Source: a virus. From it: a stretch of 64,000 bases of DNA. The stretch's first letter is position 1; the number at the start of each line of letters is the position of its first letter. Below are positions 8,272 through 33,703 of the stretch, piece by piece. The stretch spans positions 64,001 to 128,000 of IMG/VR virus record IMGVR_UViG_3300005542_000007, one strand, 5' to 3'. The notes under the pieces are model-generated. The model saw nothing but the letters and a program-made list of their open reading frames with translations. It was not told the origin of the DNA and did not search any database. Position numbers and translations under genes: made by a program.

Positions 8272-10785
8272 ATGCCTTCTCCCACTTGGACATTTACTGG
8301 TTCTTTACCCAACACACCTAGATCGGGATTTGGATACTCTGTTCTACAAAATGGAAAAGTATTGATTGCTGGAGGAGATTCTCCTTTTTCTTCTCCAACC
8401 GCTTTACCCAATGCTACTCTATATGATCCCATGACGGGAATATGGACAGACACCGGATTTTTAAATACGGCTAGACGAGATGTAATGTCAGTTACTTTAC
8501 AAAATGGTAAAGTACTTATTGTGAGTGGAGCAGATACTTCAAATACTCCTTTAACTTCCTGTGAACTATACGATCCTACCGCCGCTACTTGGACATTTAC
8601 TGGTTCATTAAGTGTTCCAAGACAGGGTATTATACCAGTTTTATTGTCCAATGGAAAAGTATTAGTTACTTGTGGAAATGATGGTGGTTCTGTTCTTTCA
8701 ACTGCGGAAATCTACGATCCTGTAGCAGGTACGTGGAGTATTACTACTGGCGCTCCAATTCATTCACGATCAGGGTATAGCGCAGTTGTATTGGGCAATG
8801 GTAAAGTACTTATTGCTGGTGGAGAATCTCCTATAGGCACAAGTCTTTCAACTTGTGAACTATATGATCCAACGACTGATACTTTTTCCACGACGGGAAG
8901 TATGGCATTCCCACATGCAAATTTAGAAGTGGGCGATAACGATTGTTGTTTATTGCAGGATGGTACTGCATTGTGGGCAGGTGGTATTTCATCTGCTGGA
9001 ACTACTGCTGCGAAAACATCAGAAGTGTATGATCCAGTAGCAGGTACATGGGGACATACCGCGCTCATGGCCTCAATGCATGATGGTAGTATTCCTATAG
9101 TTTTGGGAAATGGGTTGGTTTTATTAGCAACTGGACATTCGTATCCACCCGTTTCCACTACAGAGTTGTATGATCCAATTGCAGTATCGTGGTCTATCAC
9201 TACCTCACCAAATACCCCACGAGTGTACGCAGCGTTTATTAGATTATCATCCAATATTGTTTTGATGGCTGCTGGAGATAATGCATTTTCTAGCGATTTA
9301 GTTACAGCCGAGTTATTTAATTATGGAGGAGTTATTATGGGAACACTTTATTCAGTCGATGGAACAACAGGAAATATAGTTACAGCAGGAAGTATAACTG
9401 CTGCTGGTGGAATTACTTCAAATACTACAACATCTGGTTTTCTTCTTCCACGATTAACCACTACGCAAAGAAATGCTATAGTTTCTCCCACTACGGGGTT
9501 AGAGATTTTCAATACAACAACTAATGAAATTGAATTTTATAATGGGACAATTTGGACAGCGGTGGGTGGCGGAACGCCAGGATCTACTAGTGGAGCAGTG
9601 CAATTTAATGCGTCTGGTTCTCTTGGTGGCGATGCAGCTAAGTTTTTCTGGGATGACACAAATTTTAGACTTGGGATTGGTACCAATACTCCAGCAGTAT
9701 CTTTGGATGTGGTCGGGGATATTTCTACTACCACAAAGCTTAATACGAATGAAGTAAAAGGTAAAACTACTGGATCTTTAGCATTACAGCCTTTTGACAA
9801 TTCTTCTTTTGTAAAAGTTCAAACATCAGATGGAACTGTGGATATTATTTCAATAAATTCCTCAGACAGCAATCCAGTAGTAAAACTTAATAGTGTTCCT
9901 TCTGTTACATTGGATGTTCCTGTCATCACTAGTACTGGTGATAACCTTAATATTAATGCGGGGCTTGCACATATATTCATAAAAGATAGTGTAAATAATA
10001 CGGTTATTACTGTTAATGTCGGCGGTTCCCTAGGTTCTCCAGTACCAGTTATTTTTAATACTGCTCTAGATATGAGTACCAGCAATAAAATTATTCATCT
10101 TGCTGATCCTACAGCAGCACAAGATGCCGCCACAAAGAATTATGTTGACACAAATTTCTTGATGCTTACTGGCGGTACACTAACGGGAAATTTAACACTT
10201 GCTAATGAACACGCGGTTTTATTTCAAGATACTGGATCTAATACGGTCACTTTAGAAGCTCCTACTACTATTACTTCCTCATATACTCTTAAATTGCCCA
10301 TTGCTCAAAGCAGTGGATCGCAAGTTCTAACAAATGATGGTTCTGGTAATTTAAGTTGGACAACTAGTGGCGGGAGCAGTTCACTCAATTTAGTTTATGC
10401 TAATGCTACTGGCGAGGTAATTGTTTCGACTGGAACAGATACATTCATTGATCTTCAAGCTACAATTACTCCTTCATCAAACACTAAGAAAGTATTGGTC
10501 CGAGCCGTGGTTATGTGCGCTATTATCGATGCTGGGGCTGTTTACTTCGATTTCAAAATATCGAGAGATGGTGGTGTCACATTTGTGTATGTTGCTGATA
10601 GGATTATTGGTGATGTAGCTTCTACTGGTCAAATCGCAAATACGGCTGTAATTGAATGGCTCGATTCTCCGGCTACATCTTCTCCAGTCACTTACGGTAT
10701 TTATGCTAGGTCAGAGGGTAGTGGCATAAGATTGGATATTAATAGTGGAAATAATGCCAGCAGTATCACATTGATGGAAGTATAA
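8272..10785 (+). CDS. Kelch beta-propeller fused to a fibre-like virion protein
   Basis: Six repeats of the type L.NGKVLI.GG...ELYDP..GTW; then fibre motifs (LPRLTTTQRNAI, ADPTAAQDAATKNYVD). Confidence 0.8.
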   Translation: MPSPTWTFTGSLPNTPRSGFGYSVLQNGKVLIAGGDSPFSSPTALPNATLYDPMTGIWTDTGFLNTARRDVMSVTLQNGKVLIVSGADTSNTPLTSCELYDPTAATWTFTGSLSVPRQGIIPVLLSNGKVLVTCGNDGGSVLSTAEIYDPVAGTWSITTGAPIHSRSGYSAVVLGNGKVLIAGGESPIGTSLSTCELYDPTTDTFSTTGSMAFPHANLEVGDNDCCLLQDGTALWAGGISSAGTTAAKTSEVYDPVAGTWGHTALMASMHDGSIPIVLGNGLVLLATGHSYPPVSTTELYDPIAVSWSITTSPNTPRVYAAFIRLSSNIVLMAAGDNAFSSDLVTAELFNYGGVIMGTLYSVDGTTGNIVTAGSITAAGGITSNTTTSGFLLPRLTTTQRNAIVSPTTGLEIFNTTTNEIEFYNGTIWTAVGGGTPGSTSGAVQFNASGSLGGDAAKFFWDDTNFRLGIGTNTPAVSLDVVGDISTTTKLNTNEVKGKTTGSLALQPFDNSSFVKVQTSDGTVDIISINSSDSNPVVKLNSVPSVTLDVPVITSTGDNLNINAGLAHIFIKDSVNNTVITVNVGGSLGSPVPVIFNTALDMSTSNKIIHLADPTAAQDAATKNYVDTNFLMLTGGTLTGNLTLANEHAVLFQDTGSNTVTLEAPTTITSSYTLKLPIAQSSGSQVLTNDGSGNLSWTTSGGSSSLNLVYANATGEVIVSTGTDTFIDLQATITPSSNTKKVLVRAVVMCAIIDAGAVYFDFKISRDGGVTFVYVADRIIGDVASTGQIANTAVIEWLDSPATSSPVTYGIYARSEGSGIRLDINSGNNASSITLMEV

Positions 10786-12527: not shown

Positions 12528-15458
12528 ATGCCTTCTATCAATAATCAACCAGTTTTACCCGGAGTATTCACGCAGGTACAACAGCAATTGCTCCCCTCAG
12601 TTACGGGCGGAATTCGTGTAGCCGCTTATATTGGAACTGGGCGTTTAACAAATTTAGTAACAGGTGAAGCCGTTACTCGCGGTAGCGGAAATGACGACGC
12701 TCTTTCTCATACCGCAGTTGCATTAGATGGAACAACCATTACAGATCAAAATTTCGCCACGTATGAATCAGGTGTGGATTATTCCTCAACCCCGGTTTCT
12801 GGTGGAATGGCATGGCTTACTGGTGTTACTTCTTTAACAGGTACCACACATGATCCTTATGCAAGTCTTAGTGGATTAAATTTTCAATTGCGTATTGCTA
12901 ATGGGGCTATTCAAACCATTCCTTTTACCACAGAAACTACAGCAGCGCAAGTCGCGGCAACTTTGAATTCATCTATGACTGGAGCCGTTGCTTCAACCAC
13001 TCCATCTACTCATGCTACTGGAATCGTTACAGTTGTAGATTATACAAAATTATCTTTAGCTTCCGCTAAAGGTACAGCCACAGTCGTAGATTATACAATG
13101 CTTGCTGGGGCTGTTCTTACAATTCATGGCCACGCTCTAACCGAAGGTGTTGAATGGACAGCAGCTACAAGTAATTCAGCTACTGCTACAAGTTTAGCAT
13201 CTGCTATTACTACGGCCACAGCAACAACTCTTTCTACTGGATCTGCTTTAGGAGCCGTAGTTACAATTACGGCCAATACCGCTGGTGCAGTAGGAAATAC
13301 AATTACTTTGACTACATCCGATGCGGTCCATCTTCCAGTTTCTGGAGCAACTTTAACTGGTGGACAAAATAATGCAATTTTAACGGTTAATGGTATTTCT
13401 CTTACCCAAGGAACACAATGGACAGCGGCTACGAATAATAACGCCACTGCTACTTCATTAGCAAATGCTATTACAACTGCTACGGCCACAACTCTTTCTA
13501 CTGGATCTGCTGTTGGCAATGTTATTACAGTAACCGCAAATGCAGCAGGGCCTTCTGGAGATAATATTACTTTAACCACATCTAATTCTACTTATCTTCC
13601 AGTTTCTGGTGTTAGTTCTTCTAATCCATATCTTGCTACATCAGCAACGTATGCCGTTCTAGGAGATACTGCCGTTACAAACACAGGAAACACAGTACTT
13701 ACTGGAGACTTGGGCGTTTCTCCTGGAAGTAGCATTACGGGTTTTCCTCCAGGTACATTTTCTGGTTCTCTTCATCAAGGTGATGCTGCTGCTGCACAAG
13801 CTCATACTGATGCTACTTCTGCTGCAACTACGTTGCAAGCAACAGGTCCAGGAACTGATATTACTTCAACAGACTTAGGTGGTTTTGTTGCAACACCTGG
13901 AACGTATTCAGCAGCCGCAGCAGGAACATGGTCTGCCGGAAACCTTACACTCAATGGTGCAGGTACTTATATATTCTTGTTTGGTACAAGTCTTACAATG
14001 CCAGCCGCCGCAAGTGTAATATTAGAAAATGGTGCCACTGCTAATAACGTTTACTTCGTAACAGGTACAACCTTTACATTTGGTGCCAATGATACCGTTA
14101 ATGGAACTATTCTAGCAGGTACATCCATTACTTTTGCAGCTTCTTCAGTATTGAATGGTAGAGCTTTAGTTTATGGTCCCAGTGGAACAACCGTTACATT
14201 TCCAAGTGCTGGTACTGTTACTGTTCCGGCCAGTTCGACTTTATCAGGTGGAGATAATTCACTTGTAATTACAACAACTGCTTCATTTAATTCTTCTATT
14301 TCAATTGAAAACGGAACGGCAAATTCTATTCTTGGATTTGTTGCGGGTTCATTAGTTTCTACTCCACAACGTCCAGCCCTAGGTGTTGTTTACTTTGTAA
14401 ATTATGAATGGGCTAAGGCTGTAGGTGATGGACAGAATTCTTTTGAGCCACAGTTTTTCTTTCTACAGAATTTTAGTTCAGTTACAAATGCTGTGGGAAC
14501 TGTTGGCGGAGGAGATTCTCAGACAGCTAATATGGGAGGCGCTTGGACTCTTCCAATTGCTGCTCAATTGGCACAAGAAAACGGAGCAAGCATTGTATGT
14601 TTAATGCAAATGAATCCTGTTGATGGTGCCAATGCTTCTCAGGTTCGTGCAGCCCTTACGAAGCTTCTAATTCCAAATATTAATATTGTTGTTTCTTTGG
14701 ATGCAGCAGACAATGCAATGCTAATTCCAGATATTACGAACCACGTCATTACTGCCTCAAGCACAATTAATCGATTAGAGAGAACGGCATTTATTGGTTT
14801 TTCTCGCCTATCAAATCCTAGCGATACAACAATGCTTGGATATGCAACGGCAGCTTCCAGCAATCGTGTTGTTGTTGTGAATCAAACGAATACAACTTAT
14901 TCCATGTTCATTGGGACAAACACAACAGCTTCAACTGTAGATGGTACAATGATGGCTTCTGCACTTGCTGCTCTTCGAACAAATCCAGCATTTGACGTTG
15001 CCCAGCCTCTTACTCGTGAAGTGGTTTCAGGAATTGCAACAACTAATACTTTGGCACAATCTGAAAAAGTTATTCTTTCCAATAACGGCGTACTGATTGT
15101 GGATAATATTTCTGGTTCGCCAAAGGTTGTATTTGGTACAACAACGGCATTTGATACTATTCTAAATCAACTTTATCAGGTGACAGAGATTGCAGATTAT
15201 TGTACTCAAACTATTCGTGGTCTTCTAGATCCTATTTTTATCGGACAGAAATTGCTGGCAAATACACCTTCACAGGTTGAAACTGTGACTTCCGCAATTT
15301 TGTCAGATATTGAATCTAGTAACATCATTGAATCATTTACACAACCAATCGCAACAGTAAACCCACTACAACCAACACAGATTTTGGTGAATGTGGGCGT
15401 ACAGCCCGTATTGGAATTGGATACAATCTTAATCACATTAGGTTTGAATTTAGCCTAA
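12528..15458 (+). CDS. Contractile tail sheath protein with inserted DUF3494 ice-binding-like domain
   Basis: N-terminal PGVFTQ and C-terminal sheath motifs (IADY...FIGQK...VGVQPVLELDTILITL); DUF3494 signature at ~13623-14228. Confidence 0.85.
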   Translation: MPSINNQPVLPGVFTQVQQQLLPSVTGGIRVAAYIGTGRLTNLVTGEAVTRGSGNDDALSHTAVALDGTTITDQNFATYESGVDYSSTPVSGGMAWLTGVTSLTGTTHDPYASLSGLNFQLRIANGAIQTIPFTTETTAAQVAATLNSSMTGAVASTTPSTHATGIVTVVDYTKLSLASAKGTATVVDYTMLAGAVLTIHGHALTEGVEWTAATSNSATATSLASAITTATATTLSTGSALGAVVTITANTAGAVGNTITLTTSDAVHLPVSGATLTGGQNNAILTVNGISLTQGTQWTAATNNNATATSLANAITTATATTLSTGSAVGNVITVTANAAGPSGDNITLTTSNSTYLPVSGVSSSNPYLATSATYAVLGDTAVTNTGNTVLTGDLGVSPGSSITGFPPGTFSGSLHQGDAAAAQAHTDATSAATTLQATGPGTDITSTDLGGFVATPGTYSAAAAGTWSAGNLTLNGAGTYIFLFGTSLTMPAAASVILENGATANNVYFVTGTTFTFGANDTVNGTILAGTSITFAASSVLNGRALVYGPSGTTVTFPSAGTVTVPASSTLSGGDNSLVITTTASFNSSISIENGTANSILGFVAGSLVSTPQRPALGVVYFVNYEWAKAVGDGQNSFEPQFFFLQNFSSVTNAVGTVGGGDSQTANMGGAWTLPIAAQLAQENGASIVCLMQMNPVDGANASQVRAALTKLLIPNINIVVSLDAADNAMLIPDITNHVITASSTINRLERTAFIGFSRLSNPSDTTMLGYATAASSNRVVVVNQTNTTYSMFIGTNTTASTVDGTMMASALAALRTNPAFDVAQPLTREVVSGIATTNTLAQSEKVILSNNGVLIVDNISGSPKVVFGTTTAFDTILNQLYQVTEIADYCTQTIRGLLDPIFIGQKLLANTPSQVETVTSAILSDIESSNIIESFTQPIATVNPLQPTQILVNVGVQPVLELDTILITLGLNLA
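13623..14228 (+). repeat. DUF3494 ice-binding-like domain, copy 1 (in sheath)
   Basis: YAVLGDTAVTNTGNTVLTGDLGVSPGSSITGFPPG...NVYF...GTILAGTSIT...NGRAL. Confidence 0.85.
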
Positions 15459-24024: not shown

Positions 24025-24501
24025 GTGAGCGATTTATTTTTATCGACAGCTAATACACCGGGACAACCACAATATCCACCTCAACAAGGAAGTCCACAAT
24101 TTTACTTTGGAGAACAGACTAATGATCTTCAGATAGGTACAGATAATGATTTTACTTTAGTAAGTGGAGTCGAAGAAACAACACAAGACGTACAGAAAAT
24201 TCTTATTACGGAACAGGGAGATAATACATTGTTTCCATTATATGGAACATTGCTTCAGAGTCTCATTGGAAATAAAATAAATCCAAATACAATTTCTGGT
24301 TCTGTGCAGCAAGAGATTGTGCAAGCTTTACAAGTACTCTTTTTACTTACACAGAATAGATCAAATCCAGCAGAGATTGTACAAACTTTATACTCTCTAC
24401 AAACTACATTACAGAGCGATACTAATATAGCAGCATTGCTTACGGTTATTGCAGCCTCCGGGCAAGAAATTACTACGGGTATTCAAATAGGTAATATCTA
24501 A
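24025..24501 (+). CDS. gp25/GPW-like baseplate wedge protein
   Basis: DL...DFTLVSG...Q...KILITEQG...FPLYGT motif. Confidence 0.7.
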   Translation: MSDLFLSTANTPGQPQYPPQQGSPQFYFGEQTNDLQIGTDNDFTLVSGVEETTQDVQKILITEQGDNTLFPLYGTLLQSLIGNKINPNTISGSVQQEIVQALQVLFLLTQNRSNPAEIVQTLYSLQTTLQSDTNIAALLTVIAASGQEITTGIQIGNI

Positions 24502-24512
24502 GGATTAAAATT

Positions 24513-26381
24513 ATGGCACTTCCTACATTTTCACAAATCGTTAGTTCGATGCTCTCCTTTTTGCAAGCAGAAAGGCCGGATATTAATACAAATACAGGAA
24601 CCGTAGTAAATGACGTAGTTGTATCTACAGTAGCGAATCAATTATCGGCTGAGAATGGTACATCTCCAAGCGTTTATTCTTCTATACAATATGTCCAAGA
24701 TGTTCAAGCCTTCGTTGATAATGCTGCTATTTTAGTTCCAACAGATTTAGACGCAATAGGTACAAACTATGGATTGGTAAGAAATCCAGGAACTCAAGCT
24801 ACGGGAATTATCACATTCCGTATTCGAAATTATACGCCTTCGAGCCCTATTGTTACTGTTCCATCGGGCACCGTAGTTTCTACATTAGCAACATCTCAAG
24901 CTCCCGCTGTTTCATTTTCTACTACGGCTACGGTAACTTTTACCCCCTCTCTCGCTCCTTCTTATTACAATCCTGTCACTGGTTTTTATGAGCAAAGTAC
25001 CACAATTGTCTGTCAGACAATTGGCACTGTTGGGAATGTTGGGGCTGCAACCATTGTTTCTCTTGTCGGTCCTACTATAGGAATTGATGCTGTAACTAAT
25101 ACAACAGCTACTACTGGAGGCACAAACGTAGAGAGTAATGTAGCCTTTGCAGGACGTATTCAAATTAAATTGGAAGGAAATAATGTTGGTACTCCAAATG
25201 GAATTATCAGTTTGATGGAAACCAACCCAAACGTTATCCAATCTCTTATTGTAGGGCCCAATGATCCTGAGATGATACGGGATCAATTTGGTGGAAGTGT
25301 GGATGTTTATATTAGAGGTCAGATTCCTGTAACGACAACCGATACTCCTACTTATACCACGACAGGATCTCAACAATTTGTCTTAGTTAATCAACCCGCT
25401 TTGTCTGTTGGGTCCGTTACAGGTATTGTTGGTGGTAATCCTTATACATTCGTCCCCAATACTGATTATAGTTTTGTGGAGAACCCAAATATTCTCTTTT
25501 CTGGAAGTATAGATGCAGCTAGTTATATTGTTTTTGGTACCAAAACATTTTTTAATATTGTAACCGTCGGTCTTCCGTTCACAGTAACTTCGGTAACAGA
25601 CGGTACCCATTTGTTGGTGAACAGTGTTACGGGAATGAGTCCCAGTGATACAATTGTTCAAGGAAGTAATACTACTACTATTACGGCAATCAACCCCATA
25701 GGATTTCCACCAAATACAATCGCCGTGGGAAGCACTATTGGTTGGATTGGTGGGGGAACGGCTGCGGCTGACATTTCAGTGTCACAATTAGTTGTTAACA
25801 CGACAAATGGTATGAATCCCGGCGACATAATTGTTCAGGGAGCCTTTTCTACTACGGTTAGTTCAGTTACAAATTCAACTACAGTAGTTGTTGGAAGCGT
25901 GTCTGGTTTTTCAGTAGGAACAGCCCATTTTACTGGGTTTTCACCCGACAATAATACAGTTATTACAATTACCTACACTTATGATAGTTTGATAGCAACA
26001 CTCCAAGCCCTTATTAATAATAACTCCAATCATATTGTTGCTTCCGATGTTTTAGTGCGGGAAGCAATCCAAGCATTGATTAATATAACGGCTGGAATTC
26101 TAATTGTTCCTGGATTTGTTCCATCCACGGTAGTGGCTAATGTAGAAACCGCACTTACCGATAATATCAACGCTCTTGGACTTGGAGCAGTACTTATTCT
26201 AAGTGAAATAGTTGCTATTATACAAGATGTACCAGGAGTGGATGAAGTCGATCTCACTAGTTTAGTTATTCAATCTACAGAAGGCATTGTTACTACCACC
26301 ATTCCCCCAGGGCAGCAAATTTCCGTAGGCAAAAATGCCTATACCGTTACAAACAATTTGACTATAACAGTAGAGTCATAA
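24513..26381 (+). CDS. Baseplate J-like wedge protein
   Basis: DLDAIG.NYGLVR..G..ATG, GTVGNVGA..I, GG.N.ES..AF..RI, GGSVDVYI, IQDVPGVDEV. Confidence 0.85.
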   Translation: MALPTFSQIVSSMLSFLQAERPDINTNTGTVVNDVVVSTVANQLSAENGTSPSVYSSIQYVQDVQAFVDNAAILVPTDLDAIGTNYGLVRNPGTQATGIITFRIRNYTPSSPIVTVPSGTVVSTLATSQAPAVSFSTTATVTFTPSLAPSYYNPVTGFYEQSTTIVCQTIGTVGNVGAATIVSLVGPTIGIDAVTNTTATTGGTNVESNVAFAGRIQIKLEGNNVGTPNGIISLMETNPNVIQSLIVGPNDPEMIRDQFGGSVDVYIRGQIPVTTTDTPTYTTTGSQQFVLVNQPALSVGSVTGIVGGNPYTFVPNTDYSFVENPNILFSGSIDAASYIVFGTKTFFNIVTVGLPFTVTSVTDGTHLLVNSVTGMSPSDTIVQGSNTTTITAINPIGFPPNTIAVGSTIGWIGGGTAAADISVSQLVVNTTNGMNPGDIIVQGAFSTTVSSVTNSTTVVVGSVSGFSVGTAHFTGFSPDNNTVITITYTYDSLIATLQALINNNSNHIVASDVLVREAIQALINITAGILIVPGFVPSTVVANVETALTDNINALGLGAVLILSEIVAIIQDVPGVDEVDLTSLVIQSTEGIVTTTIPPGQQISVGKNAYTVTNNLTITVES

Positions 26382-26393
26382 GAGGATAAAAAT

Positions 26394-28808
26394 ATGATAC
26401 CCTATTCCGTAAAAATTAATGAAAGATTAAGTGCCGCCCCAATTTCTGGAGAATCACATATAATTGGTATAGTTGGGGTTGCAACTTATGCTCCTGGATT
26501 AATTCGTTTAGTTGAAGTACCACAAGGTCCGGCACCTGCGGTAACTATTCCTGGGTATATTGAAATCACAAGTGGGTCTCCATCAGGCACACAATTTTTA
26601 GTTAATTATACAACAGGGGTTGTAACTTTTAATACATCACAGGATGGAATCACCATTTCAGTATCCTATAATGGACTTGGATCAGAAATTTCAGCCGAAG
26701 ATATAAATGAACTTCAAGAACCTCTTGGAACTGGCAATGGTGAAATTGCGAATTTATCAATTACCTATAACTGGCCAGCCGCTCCAACTGTTACGTGGTC
26801 TTTAGCTCCAGGCATCGTATCAAATACTAATGTTTCCCCTTCTGCTGCCATTTCTTTGACAAAACTTCAAACATTGAATCCTAATATTGTTCCAGTAACC
26901 AATGGTTCTGGTATATTAGTTTCTTCCGCTACTACAGCAACAGAACTGAGTTTCTTAGATGCTACATCTTCGATTCAAACTCAATTAAACTTAAAACAAA
27001 CATCTGGTAATTTTATTACCGCTTTGACTGGCGATGTTACTACCAGTTTATTTAATCTTCTTAATACAGCATCTACTTATGCAGTTCTAGGCGCTACAAC
27101 GGTTACAAATACGGCAACTCCTACTATGTTAACTGGAGACCTTGGTTTAAATCCAGGTACCTCAATCACAGGGTTTCCTCCTGGGACATTTACTGGTACT
27201 GAACGTATTGCAAATAGTTTTGCAGCCCAAGCTCAGACGGACGCTTCTTCGGCATATACACTTCTAGCTGCTCTTCCCTTTACAACTGATTTAACTGGAC
27301 AAGTTTTAGGTACGGGGGGAGTTGTACCAACACTTACTGCTGGCGTTTACAAATTCTCTTCCTCAGCCCAGTTAACTGGTACCTTAACATTAGATGCTCA
27401 GAATAATCCCAATGCCCAATTCATTTTTCAAATTGGTTCTACATTAACTACTGCATCGGCTTCTTCCGTCATAATAATTAATGGAGGAAATGCTAATAAT
27501 ATTTACTGGTTGTGTGGAACTTCAGCCACGTTGGGCACAACTACAAATTTCCAAGGAACTATTATTGCTTCTGCAAGCATTACAGCTAATACGAGCGCTT
27601 CAGTTAGTGGCCGTTTAATTGCTCTAACAGGCGCGGTAACATTGGACGATAATGCTATTACTGTTACAATTGGTCCTGTTGGATTAGAAATTGCTACACT
27701 TTCCCCTACAGCGGCTGTTTTATCCATACATGCTGATTCTAGTCCCAATCTCACTGGGAATGTACAATTAGTTTCAGGTACTAATGTTACTCTTTCCCAG
27801 GTTGGTCAAGCTATTACAATTAATGCCGCTAGTGGAAGTAGTGGTATTACACAATTAACGGGAGATGTTACTACCAGTCCTCCTAATCCATATCTTGCTA
27901 CAGCAGCAACTTATGCTGTTTTGGGTGATACTGCTGTAACAAATACTGGATTTACAGTCTTAACAGGGGATCTTGGTATTTACCCTGGTACCTCAATTAC
28001 AGGATTCCCTCCAGGTACATTTTCTGGAACTGAACATATTGCAGATGCGGCAGCACATCAAGCTCATAATGATGCTACTTCTGCGGTAGCAACATTAGAT
28101 GCAACTCCTGTTACAATGGATATTACTTCAACAGACTTAGGTGGTTTTGTTGCAACACCTGGGCATTATGATTCCTCTTCGGCAGGAATCTGGTCTGCTG
28201 GAAACCTCACACTCAATGGTGCAGGTACTTATATCTTTACGTTTGATACCTCTCTTACAATGCCAGCAAGTGCAAACGTAGTTCTAACGGGTGGAGCAAT
28301 TGCTGATGATGTTTATTTTATTACTGGAACAACATTCACCTTTGGTGCCAATGATACTGTTAATGGTACAATTCTAGCAGGTACATCCATTACTTTTGCA
28401 GCTTCTTCAGTATTGAATGGTAGAGCTTTAGTTTATGGCCCTAGTGGAACGACAGTTACATTCCCAAGTGCAGGTACTGTTACTGTTCCTCCAGGTTCTG
28501 GTGGTACACAATTTGCTACTATTGCAAATGGTGTAATCACTCCTTCGATGATTACGACTTCGGCAACCGCCGATTTTACATTTCCACGCGATGTTTTTGT
28601 CACTAGAAATCTTGGTGTTGGAACGAGTTCAGTAGTTGCAAGTGCAATTGTAGAAATAGATTCTACAACCAAAGGCTTTCTTCCACCAAGAATGACAACA
28701 ACTCAGCGCAATGCTATTTCTTCTCCTGCTGAGGGGTTAATTGTTTATGATATCACAGATCATCAATGGTATGGATGGAATAATAGTTCTTGGGTTATTT
28801 TAGGCTAA
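26394..28808 (+). CDS. Baseplate/fibre protein with two DUF3494 ice-binding-like domains
   Basis: DUF3494 at ~27057-27668 (canonical SSAQLTGTLTLDAQ.NPNA.FIFQIGSTLTTAS) and ~27884-28490; C-terminal GFLPPRMTTTQR motif. Confidence 0.8.
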   Translation: MIPYSVKINERLSAAPISGESHIIGIVGVATYAPGLIRLVEVPQGPAPAVTIPGYIEITSGSPSGTQFLVNYTTGVVTFNTSQDGITISVSYNGLGSEISAEDINELQEPLGTGNGEIANLSITYNWPAAPTVTWSLAPGIVSNTNVSPSAAISLTKLQTLNPNIVPVTNGSGILVSSATTATELSFLDATSSIQTQLNLKQTSGNFITALTGDVTTSLFNLLNTASTYAVLGATTVTNTATPTMLTGDLGLNPGTSITGFPPGTFTGTERIANSFAAQAQTDASSAYTLLAALPFTTDLTGQVLGTGGVVPTLTAGVYKFSSSAQLTGTLTLDAQNNPNAQFIFQIGSTLTTASASSVIIINGGNANNIYWLCGTSATLGTTTNFQGTIIASASITANTSASVSGRLIALTGAVTLDDNAITVTIGPVGLEIATLSPTAAVLSIHADSSPNLTGNVQLVSGTNVTLSQVGQAITINAASGSSGITQLTGDVTTSPPNPYLATAATYAVLGDTAVTNTGFTVLTGDLGIYPGTSITGFPPGTFSGTEHIADAAAHQAHNDATSAVATLDATPVTMDITSTDLGGFVATPGHYDSSSAGIWSAGNLTLNGAGTYIFTFDTSLTMPASANVVLTGGAIADDVYFITGTTFTFGANDTVNGTILAGTSITFAASSVLNGRALVYGPSGTTVTFPSAGTVTVPPGSGGTQFATIANGVITPSMITTSATADFTFPRDVFVTRNLGVGTSSVVASAIVEIDSTTKGFLPPRMTTTQRNAISSPAEGLIVYDITDHQWYGWNNSSWVILG

Positions 28809-28818
28809 GGTAAAAATT

Positions 28819-30873
28819 ATGGCATTTTATGGTGCTGGCATATTTTATAATTCTGGAGCTTTCTACACAGGAGCGGTAACTTCTCCTGCACAAGGTATTC
28901 CTATTGATCTCCGTTTTTATAGAACGTCTCAGGATGGAATTTATGTTTTCTGGTGGGGGTTTGACCCAGCATTTATTACTCCTGCGTTAGCGTTAGCGGG
29001 TTTCGATTTAGAGTTGGATACTAGTCCTTTATTCGATTCCCCAAATTTGGCTACTTTTACACAGCTTACGGCGATTACTTTTCAAAATGGAAATGTCCGA
29101 AAAGGATTTGCTGTCCCAGTGGCTGCTCGTATTAATGCCACCGTACAGACTTGGTACGCAAGAGTAAGAACGCATACTGTTTCATTCACATCTGATTGGT
29201 CATCTACATTGATATGGACTATTCCTCAATCTGTACAACAATCTACGGCTGAAGCTTTAATGGAATCATTGCCCGATTTTCATGTTTATGGTAAAGGCGA
29301 TTTATTAAAACCAGTAGATCAACGTAAGACAAATTTGTGGCTTGTGGAAGATATGTATGGGAATCAATTTGATCAGATCTACTATGCTGATTTTCTTACT
29401 CAAACGAATAACTATGTAGATTTATGTGTCGATGAGGATTTATTTCAAAATTTTGGTGTGTTGTTTAATTTTCCTAAACCAGCAAATATGCAGTTTGTAG
29501 ATTATCGCTGGATTTTGATGAATTTGTATTTAGCTTCTTTGGTAGGCAGTACAAACGAAGCTATTATTTTAACTATCCAAGCTTTTACCGGGGTCCCTCC
29601 CCAAATTACCAATGTTAGGGATGAAGATGATTTCTTTCTGGTTACGATTCAAGATCCACCAGTTGTTCCTAGCGGGCCGCAAACCGTTTTTCATACATCG
29701 CAACCTTATATTGACTCAACTTTAAGGATAGAAGATATTACAACAGGACTTTTTGTACCAAGTAGTGCTTATACAACAGATGGGGCATTAGGAACTTGGA
29801 CAATGAACGTAGCAACAACAGATACATTACAAGCCATGTTTGATGTTGGAAATCCTAATGATCCTGCTCCAGTAATATTCGATGCTTTGTCCGGCGCTAC
29901 TGCTTTAACTGGACTTGTAACTTTTACAAATGGCAGTAACAATATTGTTGGGAATAATGCTGTTGTTAGCCCCTCTCTCCTTCTTTCAGCATCTACCTTT
30001 GCTGTTCTAGGAGATACAGCAGTTACCAATACAGGATTTACAGTACTTACAGGAGATCTAGGCGTTTCGCCAGGATCTTCAGTCACTGGTTTCCCTCCAG
30101 GTACCTTTACAGGCTCTTTGCATCAAGGAGATGCGGTAGCAGCCCAAGCTCATACTGATGCAACATCTGCTGCTGCTGTTCTATTAGCTCGTACTCCGGT
30201 CACTGATATTTCTTCAACTGACTTAAATGGTGCTACTCTTACAGCAGGTAATTATCACGCTACTTCAACAGGCACATTCACTGCTACTGGAACACTTACT
30301 CTAGATGGTGGCGGAGACCCAAATTCTATATTTGTACTTTCTTTTGGTACAAGCATGACTCTTGGTGCCAATGATAATGTGGTTTTAATTAATGGTGCAA
30401 ACGCCAATAATGTTTATTGGATAACAGGTACAACCTTTACATTTGGTGCCAATGATACTGTTAATGGTACAATTCTAGCAGGTACATCCATTACATTTGC
30501 TTCCAATAGCGTTCTTAATGGAAGGGCTCTTTGTTATGGCCCTTCAGGAACAACCGTTACATTTCCAAGTGCTGGTACTGTTACTGTTCCACCTCCTTCT
30601 ATTATTAGTGGTACATTATTTTTATCTCAATTAAGTGTTGGACAGGAAATTACAGATCCCAATGGTATTTTTATAGGAGAAATAAGTCAAATAACCGACA
30701 ATACTCATGCCACTTTATTAAATCCTTGGGCAGGACCTACTGAAGTTGTTACTGCGTATAGATTACTTTATACAGATTTGCAACTTCCCCCTCCAATTCT
30801 TTGGGATAAATCTACACTAGCTTTTGGAGTCATCATCACTATTTTTAACCCAGGAAATTTTATCCTGAACTAA
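28819..30873 (+). CDS. Baseplate wedge (gpI-like) protein with inserted DUF3494 domain
   Basis: LFQNFG...DYRWIL...GST.EAI...IQAFTG wedge motif; DUF3494 at ~29974-30590. Confidence 0.7.
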   Translation: MAFYGAGIFYNSGAFYTGAVTSPAQGIPIDLRFYRTSQDGIYVFWWGFDPAFITPALALAGFDLELDTSPLFDSPNLATFTQLTAITFQNGNVRKGFAVPVAARINATVQTWYARVRTHTVSFTSDWSSTLIWTIPQSVQQSTAEALMESLPDFHVYGKGDLLKPVDQRKTNLWLVEDMYGNQFDQIYYADFLTQTNNYVDLCVDEDLFQNFGVLFNFPKPANMQFVDYRWILMNLYLASLVGSTNEAIILTIQAFTGVPPQITNVRDEDDFFLVTIQDPPVVPSGPQTVFHTSQPYIDSTLRIEDITTGLFVPSSAYTTDGALGTWTMNVATTDTLQAMFDVGNPNDPAPVIFDALSGATALTGLVTFTNGSNNIVGNNAVVSPSLLLSASTFAVLGDTAVTNTGFTVLTGDLGVSPGSSVTGFPPGTFTGSLHQGDAVAAQAHTDATSAAAVLLARTPVTDISSTDLNGATLTAGNYHATSTGTFTATGTLTLDGGGDPNSIFVLSFGTSMTLGANDNVVLINGANANNVYWITGTTFTFGANDTVNGTILAGTSITFASNSVLNGRALCYGPSGTTVTFPSAGTVTVPPPSIISGTLFLSQLSVGQEITDPNGIFIGEISQITDNTHATLLNPWAGPTEVVTAYRLLYTDLQLPPPILWDKSTLAFGVIITIFNPGNFILN

Positions 30874-31381: not shown

Positions 31382-33703
31382 ATGCCTTCTCCCTCATGGT
31401 CATTTACTGGATCATTACCTAATACTCCAAGACGTGATATTCCCTGTGTTATTTTACAAAATGGGAAGGCACTCATAGCTGGAGGAGATGGTTCTTCTCC
31501 TACGAATACTGTAAGTACTCTCTATGATCCTGGGACAGGGATTTGGACAGATACCGGATCTTTAAATACCGCGAGATCAAATGCTCCTGCAATCGTTTTG
31601 CAAAATGGGAAAGTTTTAATTGCTGGTGGTGGTGATGCCGTAGGTCCTATTACATCCTGTGAATTATATGATCCAGGTACAGGATTATGGACACCTACTG
31701 GTTCATTAAATACTGCTAGATCTATAGCAATACTCATTTTGTTAAATGATGGAACAGTTTTACTTGCAGGTGGATTTTTTAGTGGAGGAAATGCTACAGC
31801 TACTGCTGAAATATACGATCCTGTAGCCGCAACATGGTCTTTTACTACAGGACCTTTGAATCAATCTAGAGCGTCATATGGGGCGGTTAAATTAAATAAT
31901 GGAAAAGTTCTTTTTGCAGGTGGAGAATCACCTGTTCATAGTCCTCTTAGTAGTAGTGAACTTTATGATCCTGTTACTAAAACATTTTCATTTACAGGAT
32001 CACTTAGTTCTACTCATACAGCAGATGAATCAGTAAATAATTTATGTTGTTTATTGAATGACGGAACTGTATTGTTAGCTAGTGGTAATTCTTCTACAAC
32101 TTCAGAAGTTTATGATCCTGTGGCTGGAACCTGGGGTCATACTGCTACTTTGTCCTCTGTGCATTTTGGAACAACACCACAGGTGTTAAGAGACGGCAAA
32201 GTAATACTTCCTGGAGGTGCTGATATAAGTGGGCTATCAACAACTGTTGTAGATTTATATAATCCTGATACAGTTTCATGGACACCCACGGCCAGTCTTA
32301 ATACGTCTCGTGCTAATTTTGGTATTGCAACATTATCTAATGGAACGGTTATAGTTGTAGGAGGAGTAAATAGCCATGTTCCCGTTGATTTATCTTCCGC
32401 CGAACTATACAATTATCCATTCATCAATGATCATTGGATTGCTACAACTGGGCAACTTAATGTTGCAAGAGGTGGTGGTTCATCTTTAGTTAAGTTGAAT
32501 AATGGAAAGATACTACTTATTGGTGGAGAAAATTCTACATTTACGGATACTTTAACTTCTTGTGAATTATTTGACCCAATTGCCCAAACTTGGTCTGTGA
32601 CTGGAAGTTTAATCCAAAAAAAGAGACTCGCTGGTGCAGTTCTACTGACAATTGGACCTAACGCGGGAAAAGTATTAAGCATTGGTGGATTAGCTGGTAG
32701 TCCTTTATCCGATTGTGAGATCTACGATCCAACCGCAGGAACTTGGTCCAGTACAGGTTCGATGGCCAATCCAAGGTGGGGCTTTGCTTCTTTCACTCTT
32801 CCATCTGGTAAAATTCTTGTAGTATGTGGAGTTGGGGCTACTGGACAATGTGAAATTTATGATCCTGTAGCTGGAACTTGGAGTACTGCTGCGGCATATC
32901 CACAGGGAAACATGTTTACGTTCATGGGCTTCGCAACATTAAACGATGGGCGTCCAATTGTTATAGGCGGCGCATCAGTTATTGGGGGGTCCTTTGCGAA
33001 TGTTAATATTTACAATGAAGGTAGTGATACATGGGCCGCACAAACGTCTTACCCTTTGATAGTCGAAGATCAGGGTATAGCGAATTTTGTTATAACGCTT
33101 TTATCAGGAAAAGTTTTAGTTGTAGGTGGATTTGATGCCACTTCTACATATTATACAGCATGTAATATTTTTGACCCTGTGGCGAATACTTGGAGTGTGG
33201 CTGCATCTTTGCCCTTCACTGCGAAGGTTCCAGGAGCGCTTTATTTGTTGGTGGATGGTACCGTACTTTGTGCTGGGGGATATGATGGAGCTTCTCTTTC
33301 TGATAGCGAGATTTATGATCCAGTTGCTAATACCTGGACTCCTACCGGAAGTTTATTGGAAGCGTCATTTCTTGGAAATTCCAGCCAACCCCAAGGTATT
33401 GTTTTAAATAATCCTAGTTACCCTTTATGGGCGGGTCAGGGTGTATCACCTTTTACTAGATCAGAAGTTTTTCAAACACCAATACTTTCTATATTTTTAT
33501 CTGATTCTATAACGATGTCAGATTCACAAACCGAAGCACTTGCTATTCCTTTGGCAGATTCAATATCTTTAACAGACACATTCCCAAATTCATTTTCAGT
33601 CGAAAGCAATGCCGTAACACCAGTAAATATTCCAATAGTAGAAAATTTAGTAAATCAGCTTGTACCTGCGGATGTAAAGACATATTTTAAAATAGAGGAA
33701 TAA
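31382..33703 (+). CDS. Double Kelch beta-propeller virion protein
   Basis: About 12 Kelch repeats; N-terminus MPSPSWSFTGSLPNTPR nearly identical to 8272..10785. Confidence 0.8.
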   Translation: MPSPSWSFTGSLPNTPRRDIPCVILQNGKALIAGGDGSSPTNTVSTLYDPGTGIWTDTGSLNTARSNAPAIVLQNGKVLIAGGGDAVGPITSCELYDPGTGLWTPTGSLNTARSIAILILLNDGTVLLAGGFFSGGNATATAEIYDPVAATWSFTTGPLNQSRASYGAVKLNNGKVLFAGGESPVHSPLSSSELYDPVTKTFSFTGSLSSTHTADESVNNLCCLLNDGTVLLASGNSSTTSEVYDPVAGTWGHTATLSSVHFGTTPQVLRDGKVILPGGADISGLSTTVVDLYNPDTVSWTPTASLNTSRANFGIATLSNGTVIVVGGVNSHVPVDLSSAELYNYPFINDHWIATTGQLNVARGGGSSLVKLNNGKILLIGGENSTFTDTLTSCELFDPIAQTWSVTGSLIQKKRLAGAVLLTIGPNAGKVLSIGGLAGSPLSDCEIYDPTAGTWSSTGSMANPRWGFASFTLPSGKILVVCGVGATGQCEIYDPVAGTWSTAAAYPQGNMFTFMGFATLNDGRPIVIGGASVIGGSFANVNIYNEGSDTWAAQTSYPLIVEDQGIANFVITLLSGKVLVVGGFDATSTYYTACNIFDPVANTWSVAASLPFTAKVPGALYLLVDGTVLCAGGYDGASLSDSEIYDPVANTWTPTGSLLEASFLGNSSQPQGIVLNNPSYPLWAGQGVSPFTRSEVFQTPILSIFLSDSITMSDSQTEALAIPLADSISLTDTFPNSFSVESNAVTPVNIPIVENLVNQLVPADVKTYFKIEE

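Follow-up and report, generated by a model that had tools for sequence, protein, structure and literature searches.

The DUF3494 domain, which adopts the IBP-1 β-solenoid fold, is treated in the literature as both an ice-binding and a substrate-binding module (PMC12337378). The ice-binding site of AnpIBP includes the functionally essential residues S153 and T156, and the same source cites a T-A/G-x-T/N repeat for FfIBP (PMC7277481). In SfIBP_1 from Shewanella frigidimarina (PDB code 6BG8) the domain is combined with tandem β-sandwich domains, and this protein has been proposed to act as an ice adhesin on the cell surface (Vance et al. 2018, cited in PMC11645318). Among viruses, three genes of the corresponding Pfam family, PF11999 (Ice_binding), have been reported from an Arctic virome as auxiliary metabolic genes with S-SKS1 named as the main viral assignment (PMC11515562). 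The gene described here, P0001, carries a complete DUF3494 domain within the tail sheath protein of an uncultured, large phage represented by the IMG/VR record IMGVR_UViG_3300005542_000007 (141,877 bp, 74% complete). It lies in a stretch of 64,000 nucleotides, positions 64,001 to 128,000 of that record, hereafter the window, to which coordinates refer unless otherwise indicated (Table 1).

The DUF3494 domain in P0001 is real and complete, and the match is far beyond chance. In the profile search that a preliminary description of the window had proposed, PF11999 aligns with residues 377-548 over profile positions 1-195 of 208 at 128.3 bits (E 4.2e-37) compared with a Pfam gathering cut-off of 28.7 bits. 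A sequence search of the PDB with P0001 returns DUF3494 ice-binding proteins only, the best being EfcIBP (PDB code 6eio, E 5.8e-28), with AnpIBP (PDB code 7bwx) at E 1.5e-20. Residues 365-569 of the AlphaFold model, with a predicted local distance difference test score (pLDDT) of 80-94, superpose onto AnpIBP with a Z score of 31.2 and a root mean square deviation (rmsd) of 1.5 Å over 198 of 203 residues. The model shows a helix (residues 420-438) beside the stacked strands, the arrangement of a triangular β-solenoid braced by a long helix, and the alignment to residues 1-203 of 7bwx and to PF11999 is colinear with no circular permutation. The complete domain of ~200 residues that the preliminary description placed at 13623-14228 corresponds to residues 366-567, and its coordinates are correct.

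The remainder of P0001 identifies it as a contractile-tail sheath subunit, confirming the earlier assignment of the open reading frame (ORF). The AlphaFold model was built from an alignment of 57 homologues and is confident for residues 28-152, 370-568, and 575-963, with pLDDT values of 83-94 over the N-terminal core (residues 31-150). Superposition of the model using VIA places the core (residues 23-152 together with 575-976) onto the sheath of phage 812 with Z = 29.6 and onto pyocin R2, the Streptomyces contractile injection system and T4 gp18 with Z = 26.4, 25.8, and 22.9, respectively. Foldseek matches sheath structures to the model at E 2e-13, and the top match in BFVD is phage G gp178 (E 1e-21). 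The C-terminal ~360 residues match by tblastn the annotated sheaths of Tunturiibacter phage Tunturi_5 (9e-14) and Bacillus phage G (2e-10), as well as ~200 mycobacteriophages including the cluster-C sheaths. The nearest cultured phages, phage G and Tunturi_5, are very distant at 23-28% identity. A Pfam search of P0001 gives no match to a sheath family, PF11999 being the single match, and the sheath family PF17482 is carried by the homologues P0067 and P0079. Model confidence is low at residues 1-27 and 964-976, as expected of interlocking arms in a monomer model.

The insert that contains the solenoid spans residues 153-575, about 430 residues or 44% of the protein. Of 66 sheath homologues found by database search, 15 (P0001 included) contain PF11999 and 51 do not, and most of the latter are 561-570 residues long and 80-89% identical to P0001 in the common parts, which identifies the DUF3494 domain as an insertion. 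DUF3494 sheaths occur in IMG/VR records with the UViG prefixes 3300028563, 3300028666, 3300028800, 3300028653, 3300028654, 3300029908, 3300029986, 3300030004, 3300014838, 3300031902, 3300037184, 3300037563, 3300044797, and 3300050138, and bare sheaths of relatives in those with the prefixes 3300020123, 3300006028, 3300035696, 3300022222, 3300015360, 3300036766, and 3300021432. About ten contigs of 140-190 kb encode bare sheaths (P0015, P0016, P0030, P0031, P0042, P0046, P0065, P0066, and P0079). The main hypervariable site of the sheath alignment is located between helix 139-152 and strand 579-583 (P0001 numbering). It is occupied by ~35 residues in bare sheaths, the remaining homologues having DUF3494 or other modules there. 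The domain sits at this site, in agreement with its earlier placement in a variable region of the sheath. Preceding the solenoid are two copies of a ~90-residue module. Residues 153-366 have a pLDDT of ~30 in the whole-protein model, and residues 165-372 refolded with their own alignment give a pLDDT of 93. Foldseek by itself gave a weak match for this module. Its best structural match is to residues 92-184 of the cyanophage A-1(L) sheath (Z = 12.2, rmsd 1.7 Å over 87 residues), with further matches to the sheaths of PhiTE (Z = 9.8) and Mu (Z = 8.5), to FliC (Z = 8.0), to the FliD outer domain and to podophage nozzle proteins, and about 50 phage proteins of the sheath or fibre kind contain the module. 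The cassette occupies the topological position of the surface domain in solved sheaths, which supports outward display, and by this analogy the solenoid would be directed outward on the tail. In the sheaths P0005, P0007, P0010, and P0014 tandem mini-modules of ~30 residues ('VTDGTHLVV..STTG') are present at three more N-terminal insertion points, after about residues 53, 88, and 107 (P0001 numbering), and the sheath therefore has several decoration hot spots, not one.

The sheath is one of four proteins in the phage record that together contain five PF11999 domains, the others having 804, 684, and 326 residues, and none of the five copies has a stop or frameshift. The 804- and 684-residue proteins are encoded directly after baseplate J, and the 326-residue protein follows a major head gene (phrog_2522, E 1.5e-35). 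Four of the domains, termed type 2, are 70-83% identical to each other in amino acid sequence, and the first domain of the 804-residue protein, termed type 1, is ~45% identical. Synonymous divergence (dS) between the type-2 paralogues is 0.7-1.0 with a nonsynonymous to synonymous ratio (dN/dS) of 0.20-0.26; the paralogues are therefore old and have been kept intact by purifying selection. Recent gene conversion between the copies was considered and is rejected overall, as the nucleotide identity (69-77%) is not above the amino acid identity and dS is in the range given. Between the sheath domain (13644-14228) and the second domain of the 804-residue protein (27906-28490) the last 56 codons contain zero nonsynonymous changes with a proportion of synonymous differences (pS) of 0.32. 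The dS is 0.2-0.6 in this last third and 0.8-1.5 in the remainder, and the low value points to either very strong constraint or an older partial exchange.

The 326-residue protein and the next protein, a fibrous protein of 548 residues (L161:6117-7763), have a common N terminus of ~45 residues (MSLLIRSVTN / MTLIIRSVTN), and a 'GFLPPRMTTTQRNAI' knob motif terminates both the 548-residue protein and the 804-residue tail protein. The common N terminus and the site just after the major head gene suggest that the 326- and 548-residue proteins may be head fibres or decorations with one common attachment domain. On the more distant viral contig IMGVR_UViG_3300029999_000008 (L148:390-2895) a PF11999 protein of 518 residues (E 5e-53) begins 8 nt downstream of a capsid gene (PF25209), so that DUF3494 beside a capsid gene recurs outside this lineage.

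In a tree of DUF3494 domains, type 2 is a phage-only clade (support 100/100) in which the P0001 domain is joined by domains from fibre and head-proximal proteins, both of this phage and of three relatives. The sheath inserts of nine other relatives in the tree are all type 1 and group with cellular homologues. The type-2 domain in the sheath set against type 1 in these nine relatives indicates that in P0001 and in its near-twin P0011 the sheath cassette has been replaced by one drawn from the phage's own set of paralogues. Records of five relatives were compared; the three with a DUF3494 sheath hold three to four domains each, and the two with a bare sheath (151 and 180 kb) hold none. In a relative without DUF3494, represented by a contig of 26,559 bp, the sheath (P0056) and a fibre protein (P0096) each carry the ~90-residue module. 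Sheath and fibre are thus again decorated alike, here with a different module, and such agreement seems to be a rule in this phage group, whichever module is used. The nearest cellular DUF3494 domains are 41-52% identical and scattered over many soil phyla. Searched by tblastn with a domain of either type, 50,697 phage records give no match, under a low-complexity filter that may hide weak matches, and among the matches listed in BFVD viral DUF3494-fold proteins number only two, both from Hyperionvirus.

Table 1. Positions and assignments of P0001, its parts, and related or neighbouring genes
Feature	Position	Strand	Basis or remarks
Tail sheath gene P0001	12528..15458	+	976 aa; ORF, tblastn, structural match, 66 homologues
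N-terminal arm (aa 1-27, low pLDDT) and N-terminal core part (aa 28-152, ending with helix 139-152)	12528..12983	+	AlphaFold; core in all homologues
Add-on module 1 (aa 165-281), α/β, sheath outer-domain / flagellin-FliD outer-domain type	13020..13370	+	Refolded alone, pLDDT 93
Add-on module 2 (aa 282-369), second copy of ~90-aa module	13371..13634	+	Sequence repeat; matching secondary-structure pattern in model
Complete DUF3494 / IBP-1 β-solenoid, type 2 (aa 370-569)	13635..14234	+	PF11999; Z 31.2 to AnpIBP; phage-only clade
C-terminal sheath core (aa 575-963), then C-terminal arm (aa 964-976)	14250..15416	+	tblastn; pLDDT 80-93
Candidate tail tube gene, 176 aa	15500..16030	+	Position only, directly 3' of sheath
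Candidate tape measure, 584 aa	17330..19084	+	Glycine-rich hydrophobic stretches; between tube and baseplate genes
Sheath initiator, gp25-like	24025..24501	+	PF10934 E 9e-7, 29.3 bits, under Pfam cut-off of 32.9
Baseplate J-like protein	24513..26381	+	PF04865 E 2e-17
804-aa fibre-like protein with two DUF3494 (type 1, 27069-27674; type 2, 27906-28490) and C-terminal knob	26394..28808	+	PF11999 E 7.8e-87, two stretches
684-aa protein with one type-2 DUF3494 (29989-30591)	28819..30873	+	PF11999 E 9.7e-43; domain 76% aa identical to that of the sheath
326-aa DUF3494 protein	G000:C1:55528-56508 (L161:5029-6009), 8.5 kb upstream of window		~700 nt downstream of major head gene

P0001 is located within a tail module in which baseplate J and, below the Pfam threshold, a gp25-like protein are matched downstream, with the tube and tape measure assigned by position or composition. 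The candidate tube has no match in Pfam, PHROG, or PDB, and the candidate tape measure has no family match. The T4 tail is built with a 590-residue tape measure and has 138 sheath subunits. By this analogy a fair estimate would be ~130-140 sheath subunits per tail, resting on the candidate tape measure. The order of a hundred copies proposed in the preliminary description is in this respect reasonable. Proteins with Kelch repeats forming β-propellers are also encoded in the tail and fibre module, at 8272-10785 (837 residues, E 1e-23) and 31382-33703 (773 residues, E 1e-52), Kelch_1 being an unexpected domain type in a phage structural region.

A complete domain at a hypervariable surface site of a polymerizing sheath makes multivalent display a sound deduction, as had been proposed, since the identity of the sheath, the completeness of the domain and an insertion site that holds the surface domains of other sheaths all agree with it. 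We assign a probability of roughly 0.55 to the reading in which the DUF3494 proteins form a virion-wide, passive, and non-enzymatic coat for multivalent adhesion, outward exposure, copy number, and the adhesive role being the inferred parts. Each sheath subunit would carry a three-module cassette at its surface-facing site, composed of two outer-domain modules and one IBP-1 solenoid, and polymerization into about 22-23 hexameric rings would array ~130-140 solenoids on the outside of the tail, so that the tail surface probably presents one flat binding face in considerably more than a hundred copies. With the solenoid also present in the two proteins encoded after baseplate J and in one beside the major head gene, these copies could constitute a single coat over the virion, in which a single conserved flat face, presented many times over, would make numerous weak contacts and keep the particle attached to an extended, repetitive surface. 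The target surface would most likely be a host-associated polysaccharide, slime, or cell envelope, as is thought for Ig-like decorations of the Hoc type, with ice as a possible target. The face in question, the B face, was mapped via a HMMER alignment to 7bwx and the published AnpIBP site, and its segments vary less from paralogue to paralogue than does the remainder of the domain (p = 0.003). Several points weigh against this reading. Selective conservation of the B face is not significant when compared with the other strands (17% versus 35% variable positions, p = 0.07). The predicted template modelling score (pTM) of the monomer model is 0.51, leaving the inter-domain orientation uncertain and hence B-face exposure putative. 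The all-or-none pattern among the relatives comprises just five records, two of which are negative. CheckV puts the completeness of four of these five at 56-94%, and the absence of DUF3494 may in part be due to missing sequence.

An ice-binding virion, in which the B faces would bind ice, either to retain particles in liquid veins within frozen soil or to suppress recrystallization around the virion and so protect it during freeze-thaw cycles, is unlikely on the present evidence. Proven ice-binding proteins have the same fold (Z of about 31 to AnpIBP and EfcIBP), and the B-face rungs of P0001, located at residues 381-386, 471-476, 487-492, 514-519, 532-537, and 554-559, read TAVTNT, TTVTFP, TSITFA, TTFTFG, TSLTMP, and GNLTLN, with five T-[ATS]-x-T rungs that resemble the FfIBP repeat. 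The AnpIBP residues S153 and T156 align with threonines in P0001, T514 and T517, and display over the whole virion would suit a physical substrate more than a single host receptor. However, a [ST][ST]xT ladder is also found in ~90 cellular homologues including those of Streptomyces, Kitasatospora, Nocardia, and Nonomuraea. A ladder common to mesophilic homologues does not discriminate ice binders, and the threonine ladder was rejected as evidence for ice because it is family-wide, mesophilic soil actinomycetes included. The cellular soil homologues (41-52% identity), from a broad range of phyla, are also nearer than the characterized ice-binding proteins (35-36%), and the same domain in proteins encoded just after baseplate J, which are usual host-contact positions, suggests host contact. 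On these three points the ice-binding role advanced in the preliminary description finds no specific support, and ice binding by the sheath DUF3494 domain is regarded as unsupported. Rather unlikely is the fullest form of this proposal, a true ice-binding virion in which the lattice of ~130-140 sheath IBP-1 domains together with the fibre and head-proximal copies would bind ice and retain the phage in liquid veins, shield it from damage by recrystallization, or template ice.

The cassette might instead have no external ligand and serve to stiffen or shield the extended sheath lattice by way of lateral contacts with adjacent subunits, or to mask the tail from defences or proteases. In solved phages, contacts between subunits often involve the outer sheath domains, modules of many unrelated kinds are accommodated at the insertion site, and conservation among the paralogues is concentrated in the last three C-terminal coils on all faces and not on the B face alone, all of which would fit such an inert decoration. 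We nevertheless consider it quite improbable, as it leaves unexplained both the solenoid in the fibre-like and head-proximal proteins and the all-or-none co-occurrence across relatives, and bare 565-residue sheaths evidently work without the cassette. Domain shuffling could also have spread a mobile cassette among structural genes as a neutral by-product without function in the sheath, a view consistent with the swap of the sheath insert from type 1 to type 2 and with the movement of modules between sheath and fibre genes. This explanation is highly improbable given that the copies have long been kept intact by selection (dN/dS of 0.2-0.26 at dS of 0.7-1.0), all five being free of stops and frameshifts. 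The adhesion coat is the reading that we prefer.

No published description combining DUF3494 with phage structural proteins was found in the literature searched, in line with the preliminary description, which knew of none for this architecture, and the only viral reports found interpret PF11999 genes in terms of cryoprotection of the host. The complete record of Synechococcus phage S-SKS1 (NC_020851.1), scanned in six frames, gives no match to PF11999. The variability of sheath outer domains and the DUF3494 fold are both already known, and what appears to be new is DUF3494 as a structural part of the particle. If the domain is an adhesin, a further fold would join Ig-like domains among the accessory decorations believed to promote adherence of phages to surfaces, and the closely related phages with bare sheaths provide a natural built-in control. 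If it binds ice, the tail would be an ordered, highly multivalent ice-binding scaffold relevant to viral persistence in frozen soils and to ice-active materials; an ice-binding virion would, if true, be the first case of a structural, virion-borne ice-binding protein, and the viral PF11999 genes classed as auxiliary metabolic genes would have been misread. Under either reading, a PF11999 match on a viral contig is not to be taken by default for an auxiliary metabolic gene. The Arctic viral genes have been interpreted in terms of host cryoprotection, whereas domains of the P0001 type are parts of virion structural proteins.

Comparison with the solved decorated sheaths (812, A-1(L), PhiTE, Mu, and T4 gp18) shows a similar core (Z = 23-30) with extra domains placed between the N- and C-terminal core parts. 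In a noticeable difference, the P0001 cassette (430 residues, 44%) exceeds the outer parts of the solved sheaths in size, and no IBP-1 solenoid is reported in the matched sheath chains, the solenoid fold having matched stand-alone ice-binding proteins only in the structure searches. Hoc of T4 and related Ig-like domains are dispensable, surface-exposed modules shuffled among head, tail, and fibre proteins and are thought to mediate weak multivalent adherence to surfaces rich in polysaccharide. These decorations are β-sandwiches, whereas the DUF3494 module is a solenoid with a flat face. The solenoid itself is closely related to AnpIBP (PDB codes 7BWX and 7BWY) and EfcIBP (PDB code 6EIO), with Z = 31.2 and 30.5, rmsd values of 1.5-1.6 Å over ~200 residues and 35-36% identity, a colinear fold with the long helix beside the triangular solenoid and B-face rungs that align. 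AnpIBP and EfcIBP come from cold-adapted organisms, which secrete them as free proteins, and their ice activity has been measured, whereas the phage domain is an internal insert in a virion structural protein and has no signal peptide. SfIBP_1 (Z = 26.4) resembles P0001 in displaying DUF3494 by way of other domains and in a proposed role in adhesion rather than as a soluble antifreeze; it is anchored on the bacterial cell, whereas the phage domain is carried in a helical tail lattice and in fibre-like and head-proximal proteins.

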